Shown here piece after piece: positions 10,752-48,955 of a stretch of 64,000 bases of DNA (position 1 is the stretch's first letter; each line of letters starts with the position of its first letter). The DNA is taken from the NCBI RefSeq assembly GCF_988243305.1, contig NZ_OZ547136.1. One strand, given 5' to 3'. A model generated the notes under the pieces. The model made no database searches and was not told the DNA's origin. It saw nothing but the letters and a program-made list of their open reading frames with translations. A program made the translations under genes and the position numbers.

Positions 10752-10815
10752 AAGCAAACTGTGCAATGAAAAACAGGAGCCATCTGGCTCCTGTTTGCAT
10801 TTCTGGCGATGGTGT

Positions 10816-23390: not shown

Positions 23391-24647
23391 ATGCTCCATC
23401 CGCGAGCCAGAACCATGTTGTTATTATCGCTCCCCGCCGTGGCAATTGGGATTGCGTCCAGTCTTATTCTGATTGTGGTGATGAAAATCGCCTCGGCATT
23501 ACAGAATTTGCTCTGGCAACGACTGCCGGGAACTTTGGGGATAGCCCAGGATTCACCTTTCTGGATCATCGCCATATTAACGCTAACAGGTATTGCGGTG
23601 GGGTTGGTTATCCGTTTCAGCCAGGGGCATGCCGGACCAGACCCCGCCTGTGAACCGCTGATCGGCGCACCGGTTCCGCCCTCTGCGCTACCAGGGCTTA
23701 TCGTAGCATTAATTCTTGGTCTTGCTGGTGGCGTCAGCCTGGGGCCAGAACATCCGATCATGACCGTCAATATCGCCCTTGCGGTTGCCATTGGCGCTCG
23801 TCTGTTACCGCGCGTCAACCGAATGGAGTGGACTATTTTAGCCTCTGCCGGAACCATCGGCGCGCTGTTTGGCACACCTGTTGCGGCGGCGTTGATATTT
23901 TCGCAAACCTTAAATGGCAGTAGTGAAGTTCCGCTATGGGATCGTCTTTTTGCGCCGTTAATGGCGGCAGCAGCTGGTGCACTTACTACCGGATTATTTT
24001 TCCATCCCCATTTTTCACTGCCCATTGCGCATTACGGACAAATGGAAATGACCGATATTCTCAGCGGTGCAATTGTCGCGGCGATTGCCATCGCAGCAGG
24101 GATGGTCGCCGTATGGTGCTTACCACGGTTGCACGCGATGATGCATCAAATGAAAAATCCGGTGCTCGTGCTGGGTATTGGCGGATTTATTCTCGGTATT
24201 CTGGGGGTTATTGGTGGACCAGTTTCGCTGTTTAAAGGGCTGGATGAGATGCAGCAGATGGTGGCAAATCAGGCTTTCAGCACCAGCGATTACTTTTTGC
24301 TGGCGGTGATTAAACTTGCCGCCCTGGTCGTTGCTGCCGCCAGTGGCTTTCGCGGTGGGCGAATCTTCCCGGCAGTGTTTGTCGGGGTGGCATTAGGGTT
24401 GATGCTGCATGAGCACGTTCCCGCCGTTCCAGCGGCAATAACCGTTTCCTGCGCTATTCTCGGCATCGTGCTGGTGGTAACACGCGATGGCTGGTTAAGT
24501 CTTTTTATGGCGGCAGTCGTTGTACCCAATACCACATTGCTACCGCTGCTCTGTATCGTCATGCTTCCGGCATGGCTGTTATTAGCAGGTAAGCCGATGA
24601 TGATGGTCAATCGTCCGAAGCAACAGCCACCCCACGATAACGTTTAG
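23391..24647 (+). CDS. yfeO: Putative ion channel / ClC-like membrane protein YfeO
   Basis: 418 aa polytopic membrane ORF. Confidence 0.8.
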
Positions 24648-24761
24648 CAAAAAATGCTCTCCTTTATGATTTAAGAGTTATGGCGATGATACGGGGCTTT
24701 ACCTCCCCGTAATATTGCGTTAACAGGCCGCTGACGGCTTCGATCGTGAAGGAGAATAACA

Positions 24762-25088
24762 ATGTTCAGGTCACTGTTTCTGGCGGCCGCCCTGATGGCA
24801 TTTACCCCGCTTGCGGCAAACGCAGGTGAAATCACCCTACTGCCATCAATCAAATTACAAATTGGCGATCGCGATCATTACGGCAATTACTGGGACGGTG
24901 GTCACTGGCGCGACCGTGACTACTGGCATCGCAATTATGAATGGCGTAAGAACCGCTGGTGGCGTCATGATAATGGCTACCACCGTGGCTGGGATAAGCG
25001 TAAAGCGTATGAGCGTGGCTATCGTGAAGGCTGGCGCGATCGTGACGATCATCGCGGAAAAGGCCGCGGACATGGACACCGCCATTAA
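24762..25088 (+). CDS. ypeC: Secreted low-complexity protein YpeC (Arg/Asp/Trp/His-rich)
   Basis: 108 aa ORF with a signal peptide, then repeated RDxxW/HR motifs and a C-terminal GHGHRH. Confidence 0.7.
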
Positions 25089-25112
25089 ACACATTCGCCA
25101 ATGGAGCACAAT

Positions 25113-25225
<113 letters not shown>

Positions 25226-25228
25226 CAA

Positions 25229-26476
<1,248 letters not shown>

Positions 26477-26479
26477 CTA

Positions 26480-26501
26480 AAACATAGCCTTTGCTATGTT
26501 T
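26480..26501. promoter_or_regulatory. MntR operator palindrome AAACATAGC-CTTT-GCTATGTTT in the mntH leader
   Basis: Perfect 9-4-9 inverted repeat about 13 bp upstream of the mntH start codon. Confidence 0.75.
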
Positions 26502-26516
26502 CATGCTATGCCAAAC

Positions 26517-26535
26517 GAGAATGATTATCAAATTC
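26517..26535. promoter_or_regulatory. Fur-box-like site GAGAATGATTATCAAATTC upstream of mntH
   Basis: Close match to the 19 bp Fur consensus GATAATGATAATCATTATC, adjacent to the MntR palindrome. Confidence 0.65.
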
Positions 26536-26802
26536 ATTTAAATGGGTTGTGGTGATTTCTCTGATAGACCAGGATTATGACTACGAAAAGATTGATGACT
26601 TGAATGTTATGGTTATGTTTAATGTTAGCACATTTACATAACTTTCAGCTTCCATACACAACATAGCAGAAATGTATGACAGCTCACTATTTTTGAAGCT
26701 TGTCACAGGACGTCATTATAGTGTGTGTCAGATCTCGTTTTCCTTAACCATGTTACATAGAATGTGCACGGAAATTTAACCTGCCTCATATTTGGAGCAA
26801 AT

Positions 26803-28005
26803 ATGGACCGCGTCCTTCATTTTGTACTGGCACTTGCCGTTGTTGCGATTCTCGCACTGCTGGTAAGCAGCGACCGCAAAAAAATTCGTATCCGTTATGT
26901 TATTCAACTGCTTGTTATCGAAGTGTTACTGGCGTGGTTCTTCCTGAACTCCGACGTTGGTCTAGGCTTCGTGAAAGGCTTCTCCGAAATGTTCGAAAAA
27001 CTGCTCGGATTTGCCAACGAAGGGACTAACTTCGTCTTTGGTAGCATGAATGATCAAGGCCTGGCATTCTTCTTCCTGAAAGTGCTGTGCCCAATCGTCT
27101 TTATCTCTGCATTGATCGGTATTCTCCAGCACATTCGCGTGTTGCCGGTGATTATCCGCGCAATTGGTTTCCTGCTCTCCAAAGTCAACGGCATGGGCAA
27201 ACTGGAATCCTTTAACGCCGTCAGCTCCCTGATTCTGGGTCAGTCTGAAAACTTTATTGCCTATAAAGATATCCTTGGCAAAATCTCCCGTAACCGTATG
27301 TACACCATGGCAGCAACGGCGATGTCCACCGTGTCGATGTCCATCGTTGGTGCATACATGACCATGCTGGAACCGAAATACGTCGTTGCAGCGCTGGTAC
27401 TGAACATGTTCAGCACCTTTATCGTGCTGTCGCTGATCAACCCTTACCGTGTTGATGCCAGCGAAGAGAACATTCAGATGTCCAACCTACACGAAGGTCA
27501 GAGCTTCTTCGAAATGCTGGGTGAATACATTCTGGCAGGTTTCAAAGTTGCCATTATCGTTGCCGCAATGCTGATCGGCTTTATCGCCCTGATCGCCGCG
27601 CTGAACGCACTGTTTGCTACCGTGACTGGCTGGTTTGGCTACAGCATCTCCTTCCAGGGCATCCTGGGCTACATCTTCTATCCGATTGCATGGGTGATGG
27701 GTGTTCCTTCCAGTGAAGCACTGCAAGTGGGCAGTATCATGGCGACCAAACTGGTTTCCAACGAGTTCGTTGCGATGATGGATCTGCAGAAAATTGCTTC
27801 CACGCTCTCTCCGCGTGCTGAAGGCATCATCTCTGTGTTCCTGGTTTCCTTCGCTAACTTCTCTTCTATCGGGATTATCGCCGGTGCGGTTAAAGGCCTG
27901 AATGAAGAGCAAGGTAACGTGGTTTCTCGCTTCGGTCTGAAGCTGGTTTACGGCTCTACCCTGGTGAGTGTGCTGTCTGCGTCAATCGCAGCACTGGTGC
28001 TGTAA
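26803..28005 (+). CDS. nupC: Nucleoside:H+ symporter (CNT family)
   Basis: ORF 26764-28005; I prefer the ATG at 26803 ([10 protein letters not shown]...), preceded by GGAG. 400 aa. Confidence 0.9.
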
Positions 28006-28014
28006 GACCATACA

Positions 28015-28046
28015 TAAAAAAGCCGGGGATCATTCCCCGGCTTTTT
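28015..28046. terminator. Bidirectional rho-independent terminator between nupC and pdeA (AAAAAAGCCGGGGAtcaTTCCCCGGCTTTTTT)
   Basis: GC-rich hairpin flanked by an A-tract and a T-tract between the convergent stops. Confidence 0.85.
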
Positions 28047-28054
28047 TACGCCTG

Positions 28055-30244
28055 TTAATCAGCTAATGGCTGCGGGCGACCAATCAAATACCCTTGCAGA
28101 TATTGCACCCCGAGCTTATGCAATAGCGCCTGCTGCTGTTGCGTCTCGACAAACTCCGCGACCACACTCAATGACTTCGCTTTCGCCAGATCGGTAATTG
28201 ATCTCACAATCATCGCATCCAGCGTATTCGTGACGATATCTTTCACAAAGACGCCATCAATTTTGATGATATCAGCCTGCAAACGCTTTAACCGTTCGTA
28301 GTTGGCATAACCGGTGCCAAAGTCATCAATCGCAATCCGGAAACCAAACTTATGCAGTTGCTCGATGTTGTACATGCTGCTTTCTGCGTTAGAAAACGCC
28401 TGCTCCTCGGTGATCTCAAGAATGACCGCCTGCGGGGAGATGTTATAACGCTTAAACAGACGAATAATCCGCCCGGCAATATTCTTTTGCAGCAGCGTGA
28501 GCGGCATTAAATTGACTGAAAAGCGCGGGCCTTTTTTGTCGCAAGGATGTGTTGCCAGCCACTTCAACAGGGATTCCAGCACTTGCAAATCAAAACGCGC
28601 GCTAAGGTTAAACTGAGCAATAAGGGGCAGAAACTTATCCGGGGTCATAATGCCACCGTCATATTTCAGTCGCGCGAGGATCTCATCATAACCTTCACCC
28701 TCTTTGTTGCGAATTGGCTGGGCGTAGAGCAGCAAATCACCCTGATCTAACGCCGTGCGAATGGTATTCAGCAATAGCACCTGTTTAGTGGTCTGCCCGG
28801 AAACCATCTCCTCTCTGCTATCCAGCGCCAGCACATGGTGATGTGCGCAGGATTGCTCCGCCAGCCAGCTTAACTGCCCCAACAAGGGTTGCAGGGTTTC
28901 CTGATTTCCATCAAAACGCCCCCAGGCAGCACCATAGCCCATATCCAGCCCAGTATTGTTCCAGTGAATTTGCCGACTATTCAGGATGTTAACCATATGC
29001 TGGAGTCGCCCTTCCGTTTCCGGTCCACTCAGCACTAACAGCAGTTCACTACCCGGCAATTGATACAACTTTTCGTTTTCCTGCATCAACGGCAGCAGCG
29101 TACGGTAAATTGAGCGGATACAGTGAACGCGCATCATTAAGCCGTAATGACGACTCATAAACTCAAGATTATCAATGCGCAGGCAGCAAAAACTCTTGCC
29201 CGCCTCTTGCTCCGGCGCTTGCTCCAACGCACGAAAGTTGGGTAGGAGCGTTAACGGATCGGTCAGCGCCTGCAAATGCCAGCGGCGATTAAGCCATTCA
29301 CTGCGATGATAAATGCGCACCATATAGAGCAGGCAAACGCTAAAGGAAATCAGCACCGCGAGAATAAATGCCAGCGAATATTCGGTTAGTACCCCTTGCA
29401 AAAAGTTCTGGTTGTAATTCAGCAGGCAAAGCGTTGAAACAGCCCAGGTGAGATTTAAAAACGGATAGCGAAGCTTACCGACACCGAGGGTAAAGATGAT
29501 AAAGAAAACAGGTACCAGGTAACCGGCAATAAAGTCATTCTCATACGGTGTGCACATCAGAAGTAGCAGCACGCTAAGAGCTGCCAGCCAGCTTAAGGTA
29601 AATGCGCGTTTCTCTTTGCTCAACGACGGAGCGATATCCCTGCGCCACAATATCTGCGCAAAGTGGGGACTTACAATCATGCGAGTGAGATAGTAGAAAA
29701 GCATGTTGTAAATCAGCACAGCGGTGAAAAGGCTTAGTAAATCAACGACTGTGAAAATGGCATCCGCATCGCCGAAAAAGGTGGATATCTTTAGCGGGAA
29801 ATCAAAAAAGCTCCCCACAAGATACATGCTGCATTTGATGCCGATCGGCGTCACCAAACCAAGCCAGAAAAGACGTTGCCAGACATATCGGCTGGTCAAT
29901 CCATAACGCCAACGCGTCCCCAGCTGCCAGCGTAATATTGCGCAGGCACACAACACAACAAACGTCTGGCTGCCGAGCATGACCGCGGTCTGTAAAAAAG
30001 AGAGATGAAAGTTCCACAGATTGGTGCAAAACATCCCGCATAAAACGGGAACGACACCGCGCCAGCCAAAGATAAACAAGATTGACAGCATTACGCACAG
30101 TGGCATCCACGCCAGAAAGATATAACTGGAATGGATAATGGCAAGTGGCGAAATAAAACGGGATAGCTGAATAAGTACCACGGTGAGCGTAAACGCTAGT
30201 GTGAATATCTTGATATTTTTTATCAGGTTATGCTCCACAAACAT
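28055..30244 (-). CDS. pdeA: c-di-GMP phosphodiesterase with MASE1 membrane domain, degenerate GGDEF and EAL domain
   Basis: ORF 28055-30304; the likely start is the ATG at 30244 (MFVEHNLIKN...). The EAL domain is in the C-terminal region. Confidence 0.85.
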   Translation of the reverse strand: MFVEHNLIKNIKIFTLAFTLTVVLIQLSRFISPLAIIHSSYIFLAWMPLCVMLSILFIFGWRGVVPVLCGMFCTNLWNFHLSFLQTAVMLGSQTFVVLCACAILRWQLGTRWRYGLTSRYVWQRLFWLGLVTPIGIKCSMYLVGSFFDFPLKISTFFGDADAIFTVVDLLSLFTAVLIYNMLFYYLTRMIVSPHFAQILWRRDIAPSLSKEKRAFTLSWLAALSVLLLLMCTPYENDFIAGYLVPVFFIIFTLGVGKLRYPFLNLTWAVSTLCLLNYNQNFLQGVLTEYSLAFILAVLISFSVCLLYMVRIYHRSEWLNRRWHLQALTDPLTLLPNFRALEQAPEQEAGKSFCCLRIDNLEFMSRHYGLMMRVHCIRSIYRTLLPLMQENEKLYQLPGSELLLVLSGPETEGRLQHMVNILNSRQIHWNNTGLDMGYGAAWGRFDGNQETLQPLLGQLSWLAEQSCAHHHVLALDSREEMVSGQTTKQVLLLNTIRTALDQGDLLLYAQPIRNKEGEGYDEILARLKYDGGIMTPDKFLPLIAQFNLSARFDLQVLESLLKWLATHPCDKKGPRFSVNLMPLTLLQKNIAGRIIRLFKRYNISPQAVILEITEEQAFSNAESSMYNIEQLHKFGFRIAIDDFGTGYANYERLKRLQADIIKIDGVFVKDIVTNTLDAMIVRSITDLAKAKSLSVVAEFVETQQQQALLHKLGVQYLQGYLIGRPQPLAD

Positions 30245-30416
30245 GAGTACACTACTCTCACTGATCGGGGTTTTCAGGCACACAAATAATAAGTTTATTC
30301 GCATCGCGAAGCAAACAGGGGCCAGCCTGTTGCCGATTTTTCATCCAATGATGCTTTCACCAGGCGGCGCTAACCCGGACGTAGACTGTATTACAAAAGC
30401 GGCAAAAAGCAGAGAC

Positions 30417-30442
30417 AAAAAACCCCCGCTTTGCAGCGAGGG
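30417..30442 (-). terminator. Terminator of the tRNA-Ala operon
   Basis: On the minus strand, CCCTCGCtgcaaaGCGGGGG is followed by TTTTTT, downstream of alaX. Confidence 0.6.
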
Positions 30443-30451
30443 TTGGAAATT

Positions 30452-30527
<76 letters not shown>

Positions 30528-30566
30528 ACGATGCGTTTACGTACCAAATTTGCTGGGTGCAAAATT

Positions 30567-30642
<76 letters not shown>

Positions 30643-30674
30643 GTCACGTAAAGCTTGTCGAGTTGACGGGCGGC

Positions 30675-30703
30675 ATCATATGAATTCCGCCCGAATGTGT
30701 CAA
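30675..30703 (-). promoter_or_regulatory. Sigma70 promoter of the alaW-alaX operon (TTGACA, 17 bp spacer, TATGAT, then GC-rich discriminator)
   Basis: Minus-strand reading gives TTGACA (30703-30698) and TATGAT (30680-30675) followed by GCCGCCCG, a stringent-type discriminator. Confidence 0.65.
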
Positions 30704-30877
30704 CGGCAAATTGCAACGTGTAGTTTCAATCGCTGAAAAATCAGGCAAATGAACAATTTTGGAAAACCGCTCGCATTCAGTAGTTATTCATGTCACGGTT
30801 TCCTGTAAAGTGGTGTTATAAAATGAACTACTAATAGACCCACATACATTCAGGGAATTGTTATGTTCAAGGAGAGG

Positions 30878-31222
30878 ATGACGCCAGATGAACTTGCCAG
30901 ACTGACCGGCTATAGCCGCCAGACCATTAATAAATGGGTACGCAAGGAAGGCTGGACAACGTCACCAAAACCAGGCGTCCAGGGTGGCAAAGCCCGACTG
31001 GTTCACGTCAATGAACAGGTTCGTGAATATATTCGCAATGCTGAACGTCCAGAAGGTCAGGGAGAAGCGCCTGCCCTGTCTGGTGATGCGCCGCTTGAAG
31101 TGTTGCTGGTGACACTGGCGAAAGAGATGACGCCAGTTGAACAAAAACAGTTTACATCCTTGCTTCTGCGGGAAGGGATTATCGGATTATTACAACGCTT
31201 AGGGATTCGCGATAGCAAATAA
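30878..31222 (+). CDS. yfeC: Small putative HTH DNA-binding protein YfeC (YfeC/YfeD family)
   Basis: ORF 30863-31222; alternative ATG at 30878 (MTPDELARL...). Paralogous to the adjacent yfeD. Confidence 0.75.
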   Translation: MTPDELARLTGYSRQTINKWVRKEGWTTSPKPGVQGGKARLVHVNEQVREYIRNAERPEGQGEAPALSGDAPLEVLLVTLAKEMTPVEQKQFTSLLLREGIIGLLQRLGIRDSK

Positions 31223-31223
31223 T

Positions 31224-31616
31224 ATGAAAAGATTACGCAATAAAATGACCACCGAAGAACTGGCTGAATGCCTCGGTGTGGCTAAACAAACTGTTAACCG
31301 TTGGATCAGAGAAAAAGGCTGGAAAACGGAAAAATTTCCTGGCGTGAAAGGCGGTCGTGCCAGACTTATTCTGGTCGATACGCAAGTTTGCGAGTTTATT
31401 CAGAACACGCCAGCCTTCCATAACACGCCGATGCTTCTGGAAGCCGAAGAACCCCTTGCCGAATACGCACCGGGGATTCGCACTCCTGCTTATCGGCAAA
31501 TCATCAGCGCAATAGACAACATGACTCACAGTGAGCAGGAAAAAGTTGCGCAATTTTTGTCACGCGAAGGAATTCGTAATTTCCTTGCTCGTCTCGACAT
31601 AGATGAATCAGAATAA
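31224..31616 (+). CDS. yfeD: Small putative HTH DNA-binding protein YfeD (paralog of YfeC)
   Basis: 130 aa ORF sharing the T-EELA...G-QT-N-W-R-GW-T...PGV-GG-ARL pattern with yfeC. Confidence 0.8.
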   Translation: MKRLRNKMTTEELAECLGVAKQTVNRWIREKGWKTEKFPGVKGGRARLILVDTQVCEFIQNTPAFHNTPMLLEAEEPLAEYAPGIRTPAYRQIISAIDNMTHSEQEKVAQFLSREGIRNFLARLDIDESE

Positions 31617-32325
31617 ATAAATATCCTCCGGCATAGCCGGAGGTTTTTCAAATGCGCCTATAAGGCTCTCTTACCAGCCGCGCCCTAACAGGCGCACACG
31701 ATCTGACATTTGCATCCAACTTCGTTACTTACGGCCCGTAAACGGGCTGCCCGGATAGGGAATCGATAACTGCTCTCCCATTTTATCCTCTTCAAGCTGG
31801 TGCTTTATGTAATCCTGTATCTTCGCCGTGTTCTTACCCACCGTATCGACGTAATACCCTCTGCACCAGAACTCCCTGTTCCTGTATTTGAATTTCAAAT
31901 CACCAAACTGCTCGTAAAGCATCAGACTGCTTTTCCCTTTCAGATATCCCATAAAGCCTGATACGCTCATTTTGGGCGGGATCTCCACAAGCATATGGAT
32001 ATGATCTGCACAGCATTCAGCTTCCAGAATCCGTACACTTTTCCACTCACACAGCTTTCTCAAAATACAGCCTATTGCTCTACGCTTCTCTCTGTAGAAC
32101 ACCTGTCTTCGGTATTTTGGCGCAAATACTATGTGATATTTACAGTTCCATCGGGTGTGCGCTAAGCTCTTTTCGTTCCCCATTGGGACCCCCTTTTGAT
32201 TTCTTGTTTGACACTTGCAGTTGCCAGACCGCAAGGTGTTTTAACAAATCAAAAGGGGTTTTAATAACTGGCTCAAAGCTGAAAGCTTTCCGGAACCCCC
32301 AGCCTAGCTGGGGGTTTTCTGTGCA
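31617..32325 (-). mobile_element. IS200 (IS200/IS605 family), complete copy of about 709 bp; boundaries approximate
   Basis: Contains an IS200 tnpA, a subterminal hairpin CCTCCGGCATAGCCGGAGG (31625-31643) at the transposase-distal end, and at the transposase-proximal end a GC hairpin (32296-32314) plus a long stem-loop that sequesters the tnpA RBS. No terminal inverted repeats, as expected for IS200. Confidence 0.75.
31725..32183 (-). CDS. tnpA: IS200 transposase TnpA (HUH/Y1 single-strand transposase)
   Basis: 152 aa from MGNEKSLAHTRWNCKYHIVFAPKYRR..., with the HUH motif (ADHIHML) and a catalytic Tyr region. The ORF-track start at 32234 is an in-frame upstream extension. Confidence 0.9.
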   Translation of the reverse strand: MGNEKSLAHTRWNCKYHIVFAPKYRRQVFYREKRRAIGCILRKLCEWKSVRILEAECCADHIHMLVEIPPKMSVSGFMGYLKGKSSLMLYEQFGDLKFKYRNREFWCRGYYVDTVGKNTAKIQDYIKHQLEEDKMGEQLSIPYPGSPFTGRK

Positions 32326-32329
32326 CAAT

Positions 32330-32363
32330 AAAAAACGGCAGGGGTATCTCTCCTGCCGTTTAT
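32330..32363 (-). terminator. gltX rho-independent terminator
   Basis: Minus-strand RNA reads AAACGGCAGGagagataccCCTGCCGTTTTTT, 15 nt downstream of the gltX stop. Confidence 0.85.
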
Positions 32364-32377
32364 CTTTTATGCGCTAA

Positions 32378-33793
32378 TTACTGCTGATTTTCGCGTTCAG
32401 CAATAAAAGCCAGCGCTTTGTTGATACGCTCGATACTGCGGGTCTTACCGATTGCGTGAACGGTAACATCCAGCGCCGGAGACTGCCCCGCACCGGTTAC
32501 GGCGACACGCAGCGGCATACCAACTTTACCCATCCCCACTTCCAGCTCATCCGCCGTCGCCTGAATAGCGTGATGAACGTTTTCAGCGGTCCAGTCAGTA
32601 ATCGCGGCCAGTTTGTCACGAACCACTTCCAGCGGCTGACGCGCTACCGGACGCAGATGTTTTTTCGCGGCGTCGGCATCGAACTCAGCAAAATCTTCGT
32701 AGAAATAGCGGCAGCTCTGTGCCATCTCTTTCAGCGTCTTGCAGCGTTCACCCAGTAGTTTCACCAGATCAGCCAGCTGCGGGCCGTTACGGGTATCGAT
32801 ATTTTCCTGCTCAATGTGCCACTGTAAGTGAGTAGCAACATACTCCGGCGGCAGCGCGTTAATGTAGTGATGGTTCAGCCACAGCAGCTTGTCGGTGTTG
32901 AACGCACTGGCAGATTTGCTGACGGCATTCAGAGTGAAGTATTTGATCATCTCTTCACGAGTGAAGATTTCCTGATCGCCGTGGGACCAGCCCAGACGCA
33001 CCAGATAGTTCAGCAGTGCTTCTGGCAAATAACCGTCATCACGATACTGCATTACGCTGACCGCCCCGTGACGTTTGGACAGTTTTTTGCCGTCATCGCC
33101 GTTGATCATAGAAACGTGCGCGTAAACCGGTACCGGCGCTTTCAGTGCTTTAAGAATGTTGATCTGGCGTGGCGTGTTGTTGATATGGTCTTCGCCACGG
33201 ATAACGTGGGTGATTTCCATATCCCAGTCGTCAACCACCACACAGAAGTTATAGGTTGGAGAACCATCGGTACGACGGATAATCAGATCATCCAGCTCCT
33301 GGTTGCTGAATTCGATCGGACCACGGATCTGATCGTCAAAAACAACAGAACCTTCCTGCGGGTTAGCAAAACGTACAACACACGGTTCATCATCAGCATG
33401 ATGCTCATGGCTGTGGCGGCAGCGACCGTCATAACGCGGCTTCTCACCTTTCGCCATTTGCTCTTCGCGCAGCGCTTCCAGGCGCTCTTTAGAGCAATAG
33501 CATTTATAAGCAGTGCCCTCTTCCAGCATCTGATCGATCACCGCGTTGTAGCGATCAAAACGTTTGGTCTGGTAGTACGGACCTTCATCCCACTCCAGGC
33601 TCAGCCAGTTCATGCCATCCATAATGGCTTCGATAGCTTCCGGCGTGGAACGCTCAAGATCGGTGTCTTCAATACGCAGCACGAACTCACCGCCGTGGTT
33701 ACGTGCAAAAAGCCAGGAGTAAAGAGCAGTACGCGCGCCGCCAACGTGCAGATAGCCTGTTGGGCTTGGCGCGAAGCGAGTTTTGATTTTCAT
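32378..33793 (-). CDS. gltX: Glutamyl-tRNA synthetase
   Basis: 471 aa class I aaRS with a HIGH-type motif ([14 protein letters not shown]) and a KMSKS-type motif (KLSKR). Confidence 0.95.
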
Positions 33794-34006
33794 GAAATGG
33801 CCTTACGTTTAGAAAGATGCCGACAACCGGCAAATCCTGGAAAAATTGAGTGGGCGATATTCTATCACTCCCGCCTGATTCCTCAATGTAGTTCGGGTTG
33901 CAACCTTACGCATTATTGTTTTCGTTGACAAATTGCGCAACACGGTCTGTTTTGCGATCATCTTGCTTAAATTTACGACGAACGAACAATTTCTTTAGAA
34001 AATGCG

Positions 34007-34034
34007 TTGACTCATTTTGAACTCTCCCTATAAT
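34007..34034 (+). promoter_or_regulatory. Sigma70 promoter of the valU-valX-valY-lysV tRNA operon (TTGACT, 16 bp spacer, TATAAT)
   Basis: -35 at 34007-34012 and -10 at 34029-34034, about 17 bp upstream of the first tRNA. Confidence 0.75.
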
Positions 34035-34051
34035 GCGACTCCACACAGCGG

Positions 34052-34127
34052 GGGTGATTAGCTCAGCTGGGAGAGCACCTCCCTTACAAGGAGGGGGTCG
34101 GCGGTTCGATCCCGTCATCACCCACCA
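34052..34127 (+). tRNA. valU: tRNA-Val (anticodon UAC)
   Basis: GGGTGATTAGCTCAGCTGGGAGAGCACCTCCCTTACAAGGAGGGGGTCGGCGGTTCGATCCCGTCATCACCCACCA (76 nt). Confidence 0.95.
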
Positions 34128-34171
34128 ACTACTTTATGTAGTCTCCGCCGTGTAGCAAGAAATTGAGAAGT

Positions 34172-34247
34172 GGGTGATTAGCTCAGCTGGGAGAGCACCT
34201 CCCTTACAAGGAGGGGGTCGGCGGTTCGATCCCGTCATCACCCACCA
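34172..34247 (+). tRNA. valX: tRNA-Val (anticodon UAC)
   Basis: Identical 76 nt sequence, second copy. Confidence 0.95.
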
Positions 34248-34293
34248 CTTTCTCGCCAGCTAAATTTCTTGTAAAAATGTGAAGTACCGAAGT

Positions 34294-34369
34294 GGGTGAT
34301 TAGCTCAGCTGGGAGAGCACCTCCCTTACAAGGAGGGGGTCGGCGGTTCGATCCCGTCATCACCCACCA
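34294..34369 (+). tRNA. valY: tRNA-Val (anticodon UAC)
   Basis: Identical 76 nt sequence, third copy. Confidence 0.95.
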
Positions 34370-34373
34370 CTTC

Positions 34374-34449
34374 GGGTCGTTAGCTCAGTTGGTAGAGCAG
34401 TTGACTTTTAATCAATTGGTCGCAGGTTCGAATCCTGCACGACCCACCA
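34374..34449 (+). tRNA. lysV: tRNA-Lys (anticodon UUU)
   Basis: GGGTCGTTAGCTCAGTTGGTAGAGCAGTTGACTTTTAATCAATTGGTCGCAGGTTCGAATCCTGCACGACCCACCA (76 nt). Confidence 0.95.
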
Positions 34450-34454
34450 ATGTA

Positions 34455-34480
34455 AAAAAGCGCCCTAAAGGCGCTTTTTT
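34455..34480 (+). terminator. Terminator of the val/lys tRNA operon (AAAAAAGCGCCctaaaGGCGCTTTTTT)
   Basis: Perfect hairpin with flanking A-tract and T-tract immediately after lysV. Confidence 0.85.
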
Positions 34481-34586
34481 GCTATCTGCGATACTCAAAG
34501 ATTCGAACCTGCAGCAGGTTCGAGTTGAGCGCAGCGAAACAACGGAGCCGCTCGCGGCGACGGCCCGAAGGGCGAGCGAAGCGAGT

Positions 34587-34645
34587 CATCCTGCACGACC
34601 CACCAATGCAAAAAAGCGCCCTAAAGGCGCTTTTTTGCTATCTGC
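34587..34645 (+). repeat. Direct repeat of the lysV 3' end (from the T-arm) plus its terminator; tRNA-Lys 3' remnant
   Basis: ATCCTGCACGACCCACCAATGcAAAAAAGCGCCCTAAAGGCGCTTTTTTGCTATCTGC duplicates 34431-34488 with one mismatch; preceded by GCAGGTTCGAG and an inserted GC-rich segment. Confidence 0.7.
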
Positions 34646-34715
34646 AATTTGCGAAATTGCCTGATGCGCTTCGCTTATCAGACCAACTATGTCCGGCAGT
34701 TCCCGTGCCTCTCAT

Positions 34716-35600
34716 CTACTGCGCCAACGCCGCCAGCAGTTTAACCATCGCGGGCGTCACCTGCTGTGTTTCATAAACAATATATAAATCTGCAGGGATG
34801 CGCTGTTTGAGCGGACGGAAAATGACACCTGGCCAGTTCATTTGTGCGTAGCTGTCCGCTATCAATGTGATACCAATGCCCATACTGACCATAGCGAGTA
34901 CCGTTTGCGGTTCATTAACTTCGCGAATAACAACCGGTGAAAATCCCACCTGCTGGCAAACTCGCTGCAAAAAATCCCAGTCAGTGTAAACGGGCGGCAT
35001 TGTAACGAAATACTCGTCACCTAGCGCTTCCAGCGGGACGGTGGAAAATGATGAGAGATGATGCTCTTCAGGCATCGCCACCAGAAACGCCGATTCATGC
35101 AACCGTAAGCTGGTAAAACCTGCCGGTGGTTCTGTCGCCATTCTCCAGATTCCGGCATCGAGTTCACGTCGTTCCAGCAGGGCCATTTGCATCGCGGGCA
35201 TCTTTTCGCGAAAAAGAACGTCAACGTTAGGATTTTCCCTGAGGAATCGCCGCATAACCGGGCGCATCCGTCCCCACATTGCCGTTCCCACAACCCCGAG
35301 TTCAATCCGCCCTGCTTCTCCCCGACCTATTTGTTCAACCCGAGCCAATACATTATTTGCATTCACCAGCAATCGACGCGATTCTTCCATCAAGATTTTG
35401 CCCGCATGTGTCAGTACGACGCTGCGCGAATGGCGAATAAAAAGCTGCGTGCCGAGTTGATTTTCCAGCTCTTTAATATGAATACTGAGCGGAGGCTGAG
35501 ACATATTTAAACGCGCTGCTGCGCGACCAAAATGCAACTCTTCCGCTACGGCAAGAAAATAACGGAGCAACTTAAGATCTGTTCTATATACGCGTTCCAT
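34716..35600 (-). CDS. xapR: LysR-family regulator of the xanthosine operon
   Basis: ORF 34716-35615; I prefer the ATG at 35600 (MERVYRTDLKLLRYF...). N-terminal LysR HTH. Confidence 0.85.
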   Translation of the reverse strand: MERVYRTDLKLLRYFLAVAEELHFGRAAARLNMSQPPLSIHIKELENQLGTQLFIRHSRSVVLTHAGKILMEESRRLLVNANNVLARVEQIGRGEAGRIELGVVGTAMWGRMRPVMRRFLRENPNVDVLFREKMPAMQMALLERRELDAGIWRMATEPPAGFTSLRLHESAFLVAMPEEHHLSSFSTVPLEALGDEYFVTMPPVYTDWDFLQRVCQQVGFSPVVIREVNEPQTVLAMVSMGIGITLIADSYAQMNWPGVIFRPLKQRIPADLYIVYETQQVTPAMVKLLAALAQ

Positions 35601-35851
35601 AATTAAGTGCTCCATATAATAAATACATCGTATTAAATTATCATGGCATAAAGTATTTCACCACCAGATATCCGACATACATAAACACGATGGATAATAT
35701 ACCCGGCAATACATTTGGAACAGGAATAGGTAATCGCACGATTGTAAACAAAGCACCAATGCCAAAACCAACGCCAGAAGAAAATAAAATATCTTTCACT
35801 AATTAACCTTTATCATAAAAGCAGCCCCAAGGAACAGAGCTGCGAATCCTT

Positions 35852-37108
35852 TTAATGTGTAACTGAACGATGCGTTATCTTTTCAGGGTCATGGTTATAT
35901 TTAAACCCAAAGAAAAATATCACTGCGAGGAAAAGAGCATACCCTGCAAACATCAGCCAAATGGTATGCCAGTCTTTTACGCCATCCACCGAAAAGTAAT
36001 CTACTGCCATGCCACTCAGAATCGAGCCAACCCATGCGCCGACACCATTTACCATGGTCATAAAGAGCCCCTGCGCGCTGGCACGAATGCTGGAATCAAC
36101 TTCCTGTTCGACAAATACCGAACCAGAAATATTGAAGAAATCGAATGCACAGCCATAAACAATCATCGACAGCAGCAGCAAAATAAATCCGGTTGTTGAC
36201 GGATCGCCATAGGCGAAGAAGCCAAAGCGCAGCGTCCACGCCACCATACTCATCAGCATGACGGTTTTAATACCGAAACGCTTCAAAAAGAACGGTATCG
36301 TCAGAATGAAACCGACTTCAGCCATCTGTGAAACTGACAGTAAAATGGACGGGTATTTCACCACGAAGCTATCAGCAAACTCAGGATTACGGGCGAAATC
36401 ATGCAGGAACGGGTTGCCAAAAACGTTGGTAATTTGCAGCACCGCGCCCAGCATCATGGCGAAGAGGAAAAAGATAGCCATGCGTGGATTTTTAAACAGC
36501 ACGAAGGCATCCAGACCCAGCTTGCTGGCAAGCGATGTAGTCGCTTTTTTCTCCGCAACCGGAATCTTCGGCAAAGTCAGCGCATAAGCCGACAGCAGCA
36601 ATGACGCACCGGACGCGATATACAGCTGCAGACTACTCAATTCCAGATGCAGCAGGCTTACTGCCCACATGGCGACAATGAACCCCACCGTACCAAAAAC
36701 GCGAATGGGCGGGAAAGCGGTCACCGGGTCAAGCCCTGCCTGGGCAAGACAGGAATAAGAGACGCTGTTCGATAACGCAATAGTCGGCATAAACGCCATC
36801 GCATTGACTAACATCACCCAAAACATCATATCCGGATCAGTTACGGATGCCGCATAAAAAAGTACGCCTGCACACACCAGGTGACACAGCATGTATGCAC
36901 GTTCTGCACGCAGCCATTTGTCTGCGATGATCCCCATTATACCAGGCATAATAATCGCGGCGATCCCTTTGGAACTGTAAACCATGCCAACATTAGCGCC
37001 GGTGAAATGAAGGGTATTAATCATGTAAGAACCGAGGGTAACCAGCCAGCTCCCCCAGATAAAATATTGCAAAAAGGACATTACCTTTAAGCGCAAAGCG
37101 ATGCTCAT
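35852..37108 (-). CDS. xapB: Xanthosine:H+ symporter (MFS, nucleoside:H+ symporter family)
   Basis: 418 aa ORF with 12 predicted TM segments, NupG-like. Confidence 0.9.
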   Translation of the reverse strand: MSIALRLKVMSFLQYFIWGSWLVTLGSYMINTLHFTGANVGMVYSSKGIAAIIMPGIMGIIADKWLRAERAYMLCHLVCAGVLFYAASVTDPDMMFWVMLVNAMAFMPTIALSNSVSYSCLAQAGLDPVTAFPPIRVFGTVGFIVAMWAVSLLHLELSSLQLYIASGASLLLSAYALTLPKIPVAEKKATTSLASKLGLDAFVLFKNPRMAIFFLFAMMLGAVLQITNVFGNPFLHDFARNPEFADSFVVKYPSILLSVSQMAEVGFILTIPFFLKRFGIKTVMLMSMVAWTLRFGFFAYGDPSTTGFILLLLSMIVYGCAFDFFNISGSVFVEQEVDSSIRASAQGLFMTMVNGVGAWVGSILSGMAVDYFSVDGVKDWHTIWLMFAGYALFLAVIFFFGFKYNHDPEKITHRSVTH

Positions 37109-37167
37109 AATCGTTTCCTTGTCGCATCATTTGGCCTCACCCGCGAGGCCGTTTCTTATTGTTTTTC

Positions 37168-38001
37168 TCAGGCAATTTTGCGCAGAAAGCCACAAATAAG
37201 GTTGATGAAGTTCTGCTTAGAGAGCTCCGCAGCCGCCAGCGTTTGCGCATGTGACAATTTCACATCGCTTAAACCTTCCGCCATGTTGGTAATCGCAGAG
37301 ACCGCAACGACTTTAAGTTCGCAATGGCGAGCAGAAATAACCTCAGGCACCACAGACATACCAACAACATCCCCACCAATAATTTGCATCATGCGAATTT
37401 CCGCCGCAGTCTCGAAATTCGGACCCGGATACGAGACGAACACGCCCTCCGTCAGAGGGAACCCCTCTTCTTTCGCCACTTTTTGTAACAGTGCGCGGTA
37501 TTCCGCATCGTAGGCATTCGCCAGCGAGAAGAAGCGCTCACCAAAACGTTCATCATTAAGACCCACCATCGGCGTTCCCGGCATGGTGTTGATGTGATCT
37601 TTCAATGCGACCAGACTGCCGGCCCCCACTTCAGGACGCAGTGAGCCAGCCGCATTGGTGCAGAACAGCAACTCGCAGCCCAGCAACTTAAAGGTACGGA
37701 TTGCATCCATCATGATGGTCATCCCACGACCTTCGTAGAAATGTCCGCGACCTTTCATGCACGCCACTGGCACCCCCTGAAGATAACCCAGCACCAGCTC
37801 ACCCGCATGACCGTGTACGGTACTTACCGGGAACCCAGGCAGCTTTTCGTAGGAAATTGCGACCGCGTTCTCAATCTGATCGGCCAGCGCGCCCAGCCCG
37901 GAACCTAAAATAAAGGCCACTCGTGGCGTGAAATCAGGTTTATAAGTCTTGATAATATCTACGCAATACAGTGGGTTATGAGAAAACTGAGCCTGATACA
38001 T
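37168..38001 (-). CDS. xapA: Purine nucleoside phosphorylase II (xanthosine phosphorylase)
   Basis: 277 aa ORF of the PNP/MTAP family I. Confidence 0.9.
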   Translation of the reverse strand: MYQAQFSHNPLYCVDIIKTYKPDFTPRVAFILGSGLGALADQIENAVAISYEKLPGFPVSTVHGHAGELVLGYLQGVPVACMKGRGHFYEGRGMTIMMDAIRTFKLLGCELLFCTNAAGSLRPEVGAGSLVALKDHINTMPGTPMVGLNDERFGERFFSLANAYDAEYRALLQKVAKEEGFPLTEGVFVSYPGPNFETAAEIRMMQIIGGDVVGMSVVPEVISARHCELKVVAVSAITNMAEGLSDVKLSHAQTLAAAELSKQNFINLICGFLRKIA

Positions 38002-38249
38002 ATATATCCTTTTTTTGTAGGGTGGAATCTAACGCCTTTTTATAACGAGATTGCCCTAACTCATACCAATACACTTTTTTCATGTATCCGATAGTTATTC
38101 GATATCGATATATTTATATTTTTTCACTATTAATAGGCGGAAAAAACTGTATTGGTACTCTCCTTTCCATTGCATTAACAATATGCCGCTTTTAATCAAC
38201 CTTTTTATTAAGCAATCAACTAATAACGATCGGCATAGGGAATTATGCT

Positions 38250-39014
38250 ATGAAAAAACATCTTTTTACTCTGACACTCTCTTCTGTATTGGCAATACCA
38301 GCAGTATCCCATGCAGAATTTAAAGGCGGTTTTGCTGATATAGGTATTCATTATCTTGACTGGACTAGCAGAACCACTGAGAAATCGTCGACCAAATCAC
38401 ACAAAGATGATTTTGGATATCTGGAACTGGAAGGTGGCGCTAACTTTAGTTGGGGAGAAATGTACGGGTTCTTCGACTGGGAAAACTTTTATAATGATCG
38501 TCATGATAAACCGGGTAGCGAGCAGCGTTATACATTTAAAAATACCAACCGTATTTACCTGGGTGACACCGGATTTAATCTTTACCTGCACACGTATGGT
38601 ACCTACGGGTCTGCGAATCGTGTGAATTTCCACGACGATATGTTCCTGTACGGTGTCGGCTACAATTTCACCGGCAGCGGTTGGTGGTTCAAACCGTTCT
38701 TTGCAAAACGCTATACAGACCAAACCTATTATACCGGCGATAACGGTTATGTCGCCGGTTGGGTTGCAGGTTACAGCTTTATGCTGGGCAGTGAGAAATT
38801 CACCCTCACCAACTGGAACGAGTACGAGTTTGATCGTGATGCCACCTACGCGGCAGGTAATGGCGGCAAAGAAGGTCTGAACGGTGCCGTCGCACTTTGG
38901 TGGAATGCAACTTCACACATCACCACAGGGATTCAGTATCGTTATGCGGATGACAAACTGGGCGAAGATTTTTACCAGGATGCAATAATCTACTCCATCA
39001 AATTTAATTTCTGA
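38250..39014 (+). CDS. yfeN: Putative outer-membrane beta-barrel protein YfeN (possibly a Tsx/OmpK-like nucleoside channel)
   Basis: 254 aa ORF with a signal peptide (MKKHLFTLTLSSVLAIPAVSHA), Tyr/Gly/Asn/Trp-rich composition and a C-terminal ...KFNF typical of OMP barrels. Divergent from xapA. Confidence 0.7.
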   Translation: MKKHLFTLTLSSVLAIPAVSHAEFKGGFADIGIHYLDWTSRTTEKSSTKSHKDDFGYLELEGGANFSWGEMYGFFDWENFYNDRHDKPGSEQRYTFKNTNRIYLGDTGFNLYLHTYGTYGSANRVNFHDDMFLYGVGYNFTGSGWWFKPFFAKRYTDQTYYTGDNGYVAGWVAGYSFMLGSEKFTLTNWNEYEFDRDATYAAGNGGKEGLNGAVALWWNATSHITTGIQYRYADDKLGEDFYQDAIIYSIKFNF

Positions 39015-39051
39015 TTGATTACTGCCGGGGCTCCCGGCAGTATGAATAGCT

Positions 39052-39978
39052 CTATATCTGATACAACGGATCCCCTTCCCGCCCAGCCATTAGCGCACGG
39101 CCCTGGCCTCGTACCACGTCCCATAACGCTTGTGCGGCGGTGGAAAGTGAACGGTTCTTCCTGCGCACCAGCATCAACTGGCGTTCCACCACCGGCGTAA
39201 TGCGCTTTACCACCAGCGGGCTACCTTCAGGTAACGGCAGCGCCAGTGCGGGAAGAATACTAATGCCGATGCCTGCGGCTACCATCGGGAACAGCGTCGC
39301 CGGATGACCAATCTCCTGCACAATATTCGCCTGAATACCGTTGCGCGCCAGCGCTGCGTCAATCAGCGGTCGGCTGCCTGACGCGTAATCCTGCAACACC
39401 AATTTCGCTCCCTGTAATGCCTGCCAGGGTACATAATCTTCCGCGGCCAAAGCGCTATCGCGATGGCAAAGCAAGAAGAAAGGCTCGGAAAGAATCGCTT
39501 CACATTGCAGATCGCCCACTGGGCCTGGATCGATGACGATGCCAAAATCGACATCTCCCTGGCGAATACTTTCCATCACCCACTGCTGCGGACGATCGTG
39601 CAGGATAAACTGAATATCTGGATAGCGGCGATGGCTTTCAGCAATGCATTGCGGAATAAGATGCGCGGAAATGGTCTGGCTGGCAGCGACCCGAACTTTT
39701 CCGCTCAGTTGTTGCCCCATACGCCCGGTATCGCGCAACGTGCTGTTAAGTTCATCCAGCAGTCGCTCAAGACGCAAAGCCAACTGCTGCCCTGCATCTG
39801 TAAGCACCACTTCACGCGTGGTTCTGTCCAGCAGGCGAACACCAGTATGATTTTCCAGCTCCTTCACACTGTGACTCACTGCCGACTGGCTCAGGCCGAT
39901 ACGCTCTCCTGCACGACTAAAACTTTTCTCCTGCGCTACTGTGACGAAAACCTTTAATTGTTTTAAAGAATAATTCAT
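39052..39978 (-). CDS. yfeR: LysR-family transcriptional regulator
   Basis: 308 aa ORF with an N-terminal LysR HTH ([32 protein letters not shown]). Confidence 0.8.
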
Positions 39979-40067
39979 CTGTTTTCTTTATGAATGGATG
40001 CAATAAATCAATTTTATTTCTCAAACTGGAAGAAGCACAATAGAACCATCGATCATCTGGAGTCTTT

Positions 40068-41066
40068 ATGAAACTTTTTCGTATCCTCGATCCTTTCACC
40101 TTAACCCTGATCACGGTGGTGTTGCTGGCCTCTTTCTTTCCGGCCAGAGGCGATTTCGTCCCCTTCTTTGAAAATCTGACCACCGCAGCGATTGCCCTGC
40201 TGTTTTTTATGCACGGCGCGAAGTTGTCGCGTGAGGCGATTATTGCTGGCGGTGGGCACTGGCGACTGCATTTGTGGGTAATGTGCAGCACCTTCGTGCT
40301 GTTTCCTATTCTGGGCGTGCTGTTTGCCTGGTGGAAACCGATAAATGTCGACCCGATGCTCTACTCCGGTTTTCTCTACTTGTGCATTCTCCCCGCTACC
40401 GTGCAGTCTGCAATCGCCTTCACGTCAATGGCGGGCGGTAACGTTGCGGCGGCGGTTTGTTCTGCGTCAGCATCCAGCCTGCTGGGTATTTTCCTTTCAC
40501 CATTGCTGGTTGGCCTGGTGATGAATGTTCACGGTGCAGGGGGCAGCCTTGAGCAGGTCGGTAAAATTATGCTGCAACTGCTGCTGCCGTTTGTGTTGGG
40601 GCATCTTTCCCGGCCGTGGATTGGTGACTGGGTGTCGCGCAATAAAAAATGGATTGCGAAAACTGACCAGACGTCCATTCTGTTGGTGGTTTATACAGCG
40701 TTCAGTGAAGCCGTCGTTAATGGTATCTGGCATAAAGTTGGCTGGGGATCATTGCTGTTTATCGTGGTGGTCAGCTGCGTTCTTCTGGCTATCGTGATTG
40801 TAGTTAACGTCTTTATGGCACGCCGACTGGGCTTCAATAAAGCAGATGAAATTACTATCGTCTTTTGTGGTTCGAAAAAGAGTCTGGCAAATGGCATCCC
40901 GATGGCAAACATTCTTTTCCCCACAGCGGTGATCGGTATGATGGTGCTGCCTCTGATGATTTTCCATCAGATCCAATTGATGGTCTGTGCGGTGCTGGCG
41001 CGTCGATACAAACACCAAACCGAACAGTTACAGGCGCAGCAGGAAAGCCGCGCCAATAAAGCTTAA
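40068..41066 (+). CDS. yfeH: Putative bile acid:sodium symporter (BASS) family transporter
   Basis: 332 aa polytopic ORF divergent from yfeR. Confidence 0.8.
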   Translation: MKLFRILDPFTLTLITVVLLASFFPARGDFVPFFENLTTAAIALLFFMHGAKLSREAIIAGGGHWRLHLWVMCSTFVLFPILGVLFAWWKPINVDPMLYSGFLYLCILPATVQSAIAFTSMAGGNVAAAVCSASASSLLGIFLSPLLVGLVMNVHGAGGSLEQVGKIMLQLLLPFVLGHLSRPWIGDWVSRNKKWIAKTDQTSILLVVYTAFSEAVVNGIWHKVGWGSLLFIVVVSCVLLAIVIVVNVFMARRLGFNKADEITIVFCGSKKSLANGIPMANILFPTAVIGMMVLPLMIFHQIQLMVCAVLARRYKHQTEQLQAQQESRANKA

Positions 41067-41281
41067 AGAGGACGCTTCAGGGGCTGGACCAGTTGCGTCA
41101 GCCCCTCAGTTTTAATCAGCAGCGTGATTTGCATTAGCTCACCGAGCTTCCCTGCCGGGAACTCATCTTTGCGGGCAAACCACAGAAGATACTCCTCCGG
41201 CAGGTCGATTAAGCGACGCCCTTTGTATTTGCCAAACGGCATTATCGTATTGGCTATTTCAATCAGCTGCTCTTTTTCCAT
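41063..41281 (-). CDS. ypeB: Small conserved protein YpeB (DUF3820), co-transcribed downstream of ligA
   Basis: ORF 41063-41374; I prefer the ATG at 41281 (MEKEQLIEIANTIMPFGKYKGRRLIDLPEEYLLWF...), immediately after the ligA stop. Confidence 0.7.
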   Translation of the reverse strand: MEKEQLIEIANTIMPFGKYKGRRLIDLPEEYLLWFARKDEFPAGKLGELMQITLLIKTEGLTQLVQPLKRPL

Positions 41282-41282
41282 C

Positions 41283-43307
<2,025 letters not shown>

Positions 43308-43368
43308 TCAATGCTAAAAACCCCCGACAAGCGGGGGTTCGAAGAGGAGTTAATTTGCCTTAAGTGTA

Positions 43369-44355
43369 TCAGGCGTTGGCGTCTTTGACTTCGCGGATGA
43401 TGTCCTGGTACTCGCGCAATTTCTGCGGAGTCATCATACGGCGCTGATCGTCAAGCACTACACCGCCCACTTCATCGGCAATATGCTGCGCAGATTGCAG
43501 CATCAGCTTGAAGTTCTGCAGCTCGTCACCGTAAGACGGTACCTGCATAAAGATAGTGACACCCGGAGTAGTGAAATCCTTCATTTCAGGATCAAAGGTT
43601 CCCGGTTTCACCATATTCGCCAGGCTGAATAACGCCGGGCCGCTGCCATCCGGGCTAAGATGACGATGGTAAATATTCATATCGCCAAAAATGAAGCCCG
43701 CTTGTTGAATGCTGTTAAGAAGCAGTTCACCGTTTAGCTCGCTACCGTGATGCGCCGCGACGTTCATGATAATCACCGCTTCTTTGCGCTTCGGTTTATC
43801 CATAACTGGAGCCGGTTCCGCTACAGGCTCAGGCTGTGGTGCCGCTACGGGTTCTGCAGGCTGGAAAGCCTGTTGTGCCGGTTGCGGTGCTGAATGCACT
43901 GGCTGCGGCGCTGACGCGACTTGTGGCGAAACTGGCTGCTGCAACGGCTGTTCAGGCTGCGGCTGATAGGCAGGCTGCTGCACCGGCTGCGCTGGACGCG
44001 GAGCATGTTGCGGCGGTACCTGCGCTTCAGGCGGCTGCTGGACCGGTTGACGCGGCTGCGCAGACGCATAAGGCGGTTGGTACTGGTGTTGCGGCGACGG
44101 ACGAGCAGCCTCATGCTCCTGGGCGTTAGCCGGGGCATGATTCACGCGGTGAACACGAACCTCACCAACGCCCTCATCATCTTCGACATCCTCGTCATAA
44201 GAATCGTCGTCACGTTTTGACTTCATTCGTTTTAATGGCCGATCGCGGAACATAGAAGATCGTTCTTTACGGCTGGTCCAGAAACCATGTACCAGTAAAG
44301 CGATTATGGCGATCGCGCCAACAATGATTAATATCAGACGCAAATCCTGCATCAT
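43369..44355 (-). CDS. zipA: Cell division protein ZipA (FtsZ membrane anchor)
   Basis: ORF 43369-44406; I prefer the start at [18 protein letters not shown]... N-terminal TM segment, P/Q-rich linker, C-terminal FtsZ-binding domain. Confidence 0.9.
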
Positions 44356-44584
44356 TATATTCTCTGTTGTTCTAACACCTTGCCACCACGGCAAACATTT
44401 ACTCACTAAGAGTATTTGCCGATTACCTCAAGTGCAAGTGCACTATTAACTTTCACAGCACAAAGATAGATGAAATCGTGCTTTTTGCTGTTTTTTCGAA
44501 CATATCCTAACTGTCCATTGCGCAATTACCCGGTAAAATACGCAGAATTTTCCTGGGATTGGTCAAAAGGAGCTCATCCTGATT

Positions 44585-45346: not shown

Positions 45347-45530
45347 CAATCTACCGGTTATTTTGTAAACCGTTTGTGTGAAACAGGGGTGGCTTATGCC
45401 GCCCCTTATTCCATCTTGCATGTCATTATTTCCCTTCTGCATATAGATATGCTAAATCCTTACTTCCGCATATTCTCTGAGCGGGTATGCTACCTGTTGT
45501 ATCCCAATTTCATACAGTTAAGGACAGGCC

Positions 45531-46502: not shown

Positions 46503-46524
46503 TGCCAGCTTGTTAAAAATGCGT

Positions 46525-46552
46525 AAAAAAGCACCTTTTCAGGTGCTTTTTT
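46525..46552 (+). terminator. cysK terminator (AAAAAAGCACCttttcAGGTGCTTTTTT)
   Basis: Perfect hairpin plus T-tract 22 nt after the cysK stop. Confidence 0.85.
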
Positions 46553-47143: not shown

Positions 47144-47187
47144 TTTCCCGGGTTCTTTTAAAAATCAGTCACAAGTAAGGTAGGGTT

Positions 47188-48915: not shown

Positions 48916-48955
48916 TCCACGAGATGCGGCCCAATTTACTGCTTAGGAGAAGATC

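Follow-up and report, generated by a model that had tools for sequence, protein, structure and literature searches.

In a 64,000-nucleotide stretch of Escherichia coli DNA, hereafter called the window, the convergent genes nupC and pdeA meet at an unoccupied junction of apparently ancestral type. The junction holds a shared palindrome, predicted to terminate transcription in both directions, the core of which is a target of the insertion sequence IS186; this palindrome is split by IS186 in K-12, as in roughly 17% of the complete E. coli genomes. We assign this reading a probability of about 0.88. The vacant site is a known K-12 peculiarity, IS186C, viewed from the other side. The observation is correct but ordinary and already known, because the uninterrupted form is the common one and IS186C is a recognized peculiarity of the reference strain. 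The added value lies only in how exactly the site fits the target rule of IS186, in the form in which later papers quote that rule, and in the apparently repeated use of the site in nature. The features of the junction are as follows.

26803-28005, plus strand: nupC, nucleoside:H+ symporter, TAA stop codon at 28003-28005 (open reading frame list, TIGR00804 and RefSeq annotation).
28006-28054, unstranded: spacer of 49 bp between the convergent stop codons, with only the hairpin and short flanks inside.
28015-28048, unstranded: perfect palindrome of 34 nt, consisting of T-A6-GCCGGGGA, the loop TCAT and TCCCCGGC-T6-A.
28025-28038, unstranded: vacant IS186 target, GGGGATCATTCCCC, fitting GGGG(N6/N7)CCCC as quoted in PMC6925257.
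28026-28037, unstranded: 12-bp target that is duplicated upon insertion, GGGATCATTCCC in the window and GGGATAATTCCC in K-12 (alignment overlap and junction sequences).
28055-30244, minus strand: pdeA (yfeA), GGDEF/EAL protein of the c-di-GMP phosphodiesterase type, complement of the stop codon at 28055-28057 (open reading frame list and RefSeq annotation).

The gene ends named in the first-pass annotation, 28005 for nupC and 28055 for pdeA, both matched the open reading frame list. The mechanically called frames are longer at their 5' ends: that of nupC begins at 26764 with GTG, the start equivalent to RefSeq being 26803, and that of pdeA extends to 30304. The NupC protein reached 486.8 bits against TIGR00804 at a cut-off of 442 and was assigned to this family. 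The pdeA product matched EAL/GGDEF c-di-GMP phosphodiesterase families with E-values of about 1e-40, all of them under the equivalog cut-offs. Furthermore, 661 bp around the junction were 100% identical to a stretch of strain Ecol_316 annotated by RefSeq as nupC and pdeA. Judged by these matches, the identities of both genes are secure. The sequence around the junction reads ...ctggtgctgTAAgaccatacaTAAAAAAGCCGGGGAtcatTCCCCGGCTTTTTTAcgcctgTTAatcagc... in the window. A search of positions 27900-28160 against Rfam returned no family at the gathering score, leaving the spacer without a described RNA family. In a permissive Rfam scan, the only matches stayed below threshold and belonged to unrelated families, chiefly of sRNAs and leaders; the majority overlapped the hairpin, and all were rejected.

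The palindrome was delimited by an inverted-repeat finder. Its arms (28015-28029 and 28034-28048) are 15 nt long, 100% complementary and separated by the 4-nt loop TCAT. A perfect hairpin had previously been placed at 28015-28046; its perfection and its start were borne out, and the end was set 2 nt short of the actual position 28048. Within the arms, a G+C-rich core stem is formed by pairing of 28022-28029 with 28034-28041, where GCCGGGGA and TCCCCGGC provide seven G:C pairs and one A:U pair. This core is bordered by an A6 tract (28016-28021) and a T6 tract (28042-28047), placing U6 directly 3' of the stem in the RNA of both strands. The palindrome starts 9 nt past the nupC stop codon and 6 nt past that of pdeA. 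The spacer RNA folded with -25.1 kcal/mol (z -6.7) for the plus strand and with -31.1 kcal/mol (z -7.1) for the minus strand, and none of 200 dinucleotide shuffles folded equally well. A scan of the whole window revealed the nupC-pdeA hairpin as the longest perfect hairpin palindrome across its 64 kb; shuffled windows contained only 0-2 hairpins whose arms were 10 nt or longer. The palindrome is far beyond chance.

The hairpin call rests on folding and palindrome search, not on a consensus promoter/terminator scanner. A simple scanner of this type reported just a truncated 5-bp stem on the plus strand, with a count no higher than that in shuffled sequence. A promoter-like match on the minus strand from 28058 to 28029 was weak, at chance level, and was discarded. 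Elsewhere in the window, smaller palindromes composed of an A-tract, a stem and a T-tract were observed, e.g., at 46525-46552 and 49480-49507.

A G+C-rich stem-loop is located past each stop codon with a U-run directly 3' of the stem, and the convergent nupC (plus strand) and pdeA (minus strand) share one symmetric hairpin with both an A-tract and a U-tract. As the hairpin is followed by U6 on either strand, we infer that the palindrome is a bidirectional Rho-independent terminator, that is, an intrinsic terminator in both directions. Transcripts of either strand would form an 8-bp G+C-rich stem, which A:U pairs can lengthen to 14-15 bp, and six U. The hairpin would thereby end the nupC as well as the pdeA transcript and define both 3' ends, and it may block antisense transcription from each gene into the other. 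A prevalent class of bidirectional terminators located between convergent genes has been described in E. coli (Ju et al. 2019, as cited in bioRxiv 10.1101/2022.10.23.513370).

The palindrome might primarily have a function other than termination, as a 3' stabilizer protecting against exonucleases, as a site of polymerase pausing or collision, or as a REP-like or protein-binding element. According to the bioRxiv preprint cited above, some bidirectional terminators of E. coli are poor at intrinsic termination in a single direction and serve as pause sites where polymerases collide; additionally, strain N96 carries the hairpin twice, flanking a REP-like sequence. However, the element described here shows the full canonical intrinsic signature of stem, tetraloop and U6 on both strands, unlike elements of the collision type, and direct reading of the 49-bp spacer revealed no REP-like sequence. 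Moreover, such functions would be compatible with termination. A primary role other than termination is thus very unlikely, and a two-way terminator is the reading preferred here.

The same junction is interrupted in K-12. The genome of MG1655 (NC_000913.3) carries the feature 'insertion sequence:IS186C' at 2514273-2515617, with insL3 (b2394) between nupC (b2393) and pdeA (b2395), and W3110 has the same arrangement with 100% identity over the 10 kb compared. The first-pass annotation had placed an IS186 copy at this position of MG1655, and rightly so; it had also named the same 49-bp junction in MG1655 as the result that would contradict it. That result was not obtained: the spacer of MG1655 measures 1,398 bp. 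This length is the sum of the 49 bp, an IS186 element of 1,337 bp with perfect 22-bp terminal repeats, and a 12-bp duplication. The two junctions in MG1655 read ...AAAAAAGCCGGGGATAATTCCC/ATAAGCGCTAACTTAAGGGTTG... and ...CAACCCTTAAGTTAGCGCTTAT/GGGATAATTCCCCGGTTTTTTT..., the slash marking the boundary. IS186 lies inside the hairpin loop, with the target duplication GGGATAATTCCC on each side; the exact boundary between element and duplication can be placed only to within a few bases, the target itself being nearly palindromic. Alignment of the window with MG1655 yielded two blocks, 23761-28037 and 28026-31621, the 12-bp overlap of which is the insertion point. IS186 was found at the orthologous position, flanked by the 12-bp duplication, in MG1655, W3110, EA7, UMNK88 and one ST131 strain.

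Insertion of IS186 apparently affected the fold. In K-12, the two halves of the hairpin are 1.3 kb apart, and the RNAs of the two junctions gave z-scores of -0.65 and -1.14, neither of which beats shuffled sequence. A significant fold (z -5.1 and -4.65) was obtained for the empty K-12-type allele, as present in E. coli B. From the distance between the halves and the loss of a significant fold, we conclude that nupC and pdeA have probably both lost their native terminator in K-12.

The distribution of the two states was surveyed in the RefSeq complete E. coli genomes, 5,424 of which gave a match. Junction states were counted by coverage thresholds, without inspection of individual genomes:

contiguous, uninterrupted junction: 4,459 of 5,424 genomes (82%).
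nupC/IS186 junction in K-12 orientation: 472 of 5,424 genomes.
IS186 reversed at the same position: 465 of 5,424 genomes, e.g., UMNK88, EA7 and ATCC 8739.
other states: 28 of 5,424 genomes, e.g., IS2 inside IS186 (Stbl4) or nupC deleted (ST2747).

Carriers of IS186 at the junction, both orientations included, amount to about 920-940 of 5,426 genomes (about 17%). A 49-mer specific for the true junction of IS186 with the right flank was present in 921 genomes (858 exact, 45 with one mismatch); this 49-mer is blind to an occupied junction of the window type, because the two allele differences leave no exact word of 28 bases. When IS186 and one copy of the duplication are removed from the K-12 sequence, the empty site is predicted to read AAAAAAGCCGGGGATAATTCCCCGGTTTTTTT, and exactly this sequence occurs in E. 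coli B ATCC 11303 and in O111:H- 11128. Further empty alleles were found:

TAAT loop with GGC: O157:H7, GN06758 and PAR.
TCAT loop with GGC: the window and Ecol_316.
1-bp deletion in the loop: ZLWT.

The contiguous majority and the recovery of the reconstructed K-12 site in two strains are in line with the initial description of the junction as pristine. As the empty state is the majority state, exists in several alleles and occurs in strains as unlike as O157:H7, O111 and E. coli B, the empty nupC-pdeA site is likely ancestral. A search for outgroup junctions with the pattern AAAGCCGGGGN6CCCCGGYTTTTT gave no Escherichia or Salmonella junction among the matches listed; the pattern is generic and found at least 120 look-alike hairpins in unrelated phyla.

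The window lineage itself could have become empty secondarily, either through precise excision of IS186 or because recombination brought in an empty allele. The region has a mosaic composition: at the junction, 661 bp are identical to Ecol_316, whereas identity is only about 98.5% in the 40 kb around them, and this pattern makes a recombinational replacement of the stretch plausible in principle. However, no footprint of IS186, such as a retained 12-bp duplication, was seen at the site, where the hairpin is perfect, and 82% of the genomes are empty. Furthermore, the window allele (TCAT, GGC) occurred at none of the five occupied junctions that were read, W3110 being included by identity. The terminal repeat of IS186, a member of the IS4 family (22-23 bp, (C)ATAAGCGCTAACTTAAGGGTTG), had no match with up to three mismatches anywhere in the 64-kb window. 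We regard secondary loss as highly improbable; IS186 would never have inserted at this site in the window lineage, precise loss being less likely.

A non-K-12 background had been proposed from the outset and agrees with the comparison to MG1655. The flanks of the junction are 98.4% and 97.5% identical (1.6-2.5% different), and the hairpin differs at two positions, the loop being TCAT instead of TAAT and GGC replacing GGT. In the TAAT/GGT allele, the stem contains a G:U pair on one strand and an A-C mismatch on the other. The best match around the junction among complete E. coli genomes was 98.8% identical over 12.5 kb, and positions 40000-50000 were 99.8% identical to strain C4. By these identities, the window is clearly E. 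coli and not K-12, and its lineage is mosaic, with no close representative among complete E. coli genomes. The absence of IS186, being the majority state, excludes only K-12 and the other lineages with IS186 at this position.

The preferred target of IS186 is 5'-GGGG(N6/N7)CCCC, as quoted in PMC6925257, which cites saiSree et al. 2001 and others. A pattern search for this rule found a single match in the 64-kb window, with about 0.85 expected by chance, and this match is the core of the hairpin. By this rule, the GGGG-N6-CCCC core of the stem-loop doubles as a preferred target; in K-12 and about 17% of complete E. coli genomes, an IS186 copy sits in the loop between duplicated 12-bp targets and divides the putative terminator.

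Forward and reverse copies of IS186 are identical over 1,337 bp, share the same duplication and have nearly identical flanks; EA7 and MG1655 differ by one SNP in 3.2 kb of flanking sequence. Owing to this near-identity, the two orientations alone cannot separate independent insertion from inversion in situ. A single ancestral insertion could have been followed by inversion via the 22-bp terminal inverted repeats, and the shared features of EA7 and MG1655 are what such a history would leave. Yet in NZ_CP157672, labelled ST-131, where the allele is GGC and the flanks share only 97.8% identity with K-12, IS186 occupies the identical position and is bounded by the same duplication, and the one-mismatch junction of 45 genomes also speaks against one insertion as the sole origin, as does the match of the site to the quoted target consensus. 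Most simply, IS186 inserted independently at least once more, and inversion instead of repeated insertion appears possible but doubtful. Since the ST131 insertion occupies the identical position on divergent flanks, the nupC-pdeA terminator is, in the simplest reading, a recurrent hot spot of IS186 like the lon promoter.

Recurrence at one terminator might also mean that these insertions were kept by selection, by altering 3'-end formation and the expression of pdeA (c-di-GMP turnover) or of nupC. A possible route would be read-through from nupC into insL and antisense transcription into pdeA. We consider selection unlikely; if it did act, K-12 would be atypical for nupC and pdeA. We know of no phenotype of IS186 in the nupC-pdeA hairpin. 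A literature search for IS186 together with nupC or yfeA found no report among the papers searched, which is weak evidence of novelty.

The junction provides a clean marker against K-12 and the other lineages with IS186 at this site, although its practical value is small. The K-12 reference strain probably lacks the terminator that nupC and pdeA natively share. K-12 is the strain behind most terminator maps, and such maps would be silent on this site because IS186 splits the hairpin there. With the native element missing, catalogues of terminators and studies of 3'-UTRs that are based on K-12 would omit it and may misjudge both 3' ends. Additionally, the occurrence of IS186 at a single position, whichever its orientation and on haplotypes that diverge, offers a natural example of the GGGG-N6-CCCC rule, as quoted, acting on a terminator hairpin.

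Compared with IS186C of MG1655, the window shares the chromosomal junction, and the flanks align position by position as far as 28037 on one side and from 28026 on the other; the window differs in being without IS186 and in its hairpin allele (TCAT + GGC, in MG1655 TAAT + GGT). With the class of Ju et al. 2019, as the preprint presents it, the nupC-pdeA element has in common that a single hairpin-encoding element lies between a convergent pair and is placed to form both 3' ends. The members stressed there are unlike intrinsic terminators and depend on polymerase collisions, whereas the element described here has canonical A- and U-tracts and is predicted to be an ordinary intrinsic terminator each way. 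The hot spots of IS186, e.g., the lon promoter (PMC6925257, PMC3045373), resemble the junction, as far as these papers describe them, in a GGGG-N6-CCCC core with a single fixed insertion point that accepts either orientation and is used again in independent lineages. The difference from the lon promoter, known here as quoted by others, is that the target is a terminator hairpin between genes and not a promoter. The finding extends the known behaviour of IS186, leaves it unchanged and is what the biology of IS186 predicts.

The lineage of the window was examined by comparison with the complete RefSeq E. coli genomes. None of these genomes matched the window closely throughout its length. The best match to 26700-39200 in this set reached 98.8%, positions 40000-50000 were 99.8% identical to strain C4, and positions 27700-28360 were 100% identical in Ecol_316, a RefSeq comparison genome. 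The lineage of the window is mosaic and sparsely sampled.

Alignment of the yfeD-gltX interval revealed an insert of about 705 bp in the window (31622-32326, minus strand), which is missing from both MG1655 and Ecol_316. It contains two features:

32193-32316, minus strand, Rfam STnc490 match (146 bits)
32294-32316, hairpin

This insert with its STnc490 match and hairpin fits the IS200 copy named in the first-pass annotation. Furthermore, a yfeS-containing segment of about 960 bp (38277-39239 in L002, from Ecol_316) is missing at 50825-50829 of the window, where yfeK almost directly adjoins the cysM side. Near the tRNA-Val/Lys cluster, a 4.5-kb segment (34490-39051) is common to the window and K-12, in which it comprises RtT, xapR, xapB, and xapA; Ecol_316 carries a small FlxA-like gene in its place. 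This segment is a further presence/absence polymorphism.

A hairpin scan of the whole window identified further perfect palindromes with an A-tract, a stem, and a T-tract, with arms of 11-13 nt:

10771-10796, perfect A-tract/stem/T-tract palindrome
34454-34480, perfect A-tract/stem/T-tract palindrome
34608-34638, perfect A-tract/stem/T-tract palindrome
46525-46552, perfect A-tract/stem/T-tract palindrome
49480-49507, perfect A-tract/stem/T-tract palindrome

They share the bidirectional-terminator style of the nupC-pdeA hairpin; their sites include one 3' of cysK and one between crr and pdxK.

The nupC-pdeA junction itself varies among strains. The spacer of strain N96 (NZ_CM169999) is 142 bp long and contains the terminator hairpin twice, one copy on either side of the REP-like sequence GCCTGATAAGCGTAGCGCATCAGGC, the second copy being degenerate (CCCTGC); it is a longer, alternative form of the spacer. 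In strain ST2747 (NZ_CP007394), nupC is entirely deleted, and mntH/ypeD directly adjoins pdeA.

At the identical nucleotide position, 465 complete genomes carry IS186 reversed with respect to K-12. EA7, UMNK88, and ATCC 8739 are among the carriers. The sequence of the opposite-orientation copy is identical to that of the K-12 copy, and it may have originated by independent insertion or by inversion in situ. An IS186 junction with one mismatch is common to 45 genomes. In the 'ST-131' strain (L134, NZ_CP157672; 1654-3051), IS186 occupies the K-12 position on a divergent haplotype, which is 97.8% identical to K-12 and carries the GGC allele of the hairpin arm; this constitutes evidence for an independent hit at the site used in K-12.
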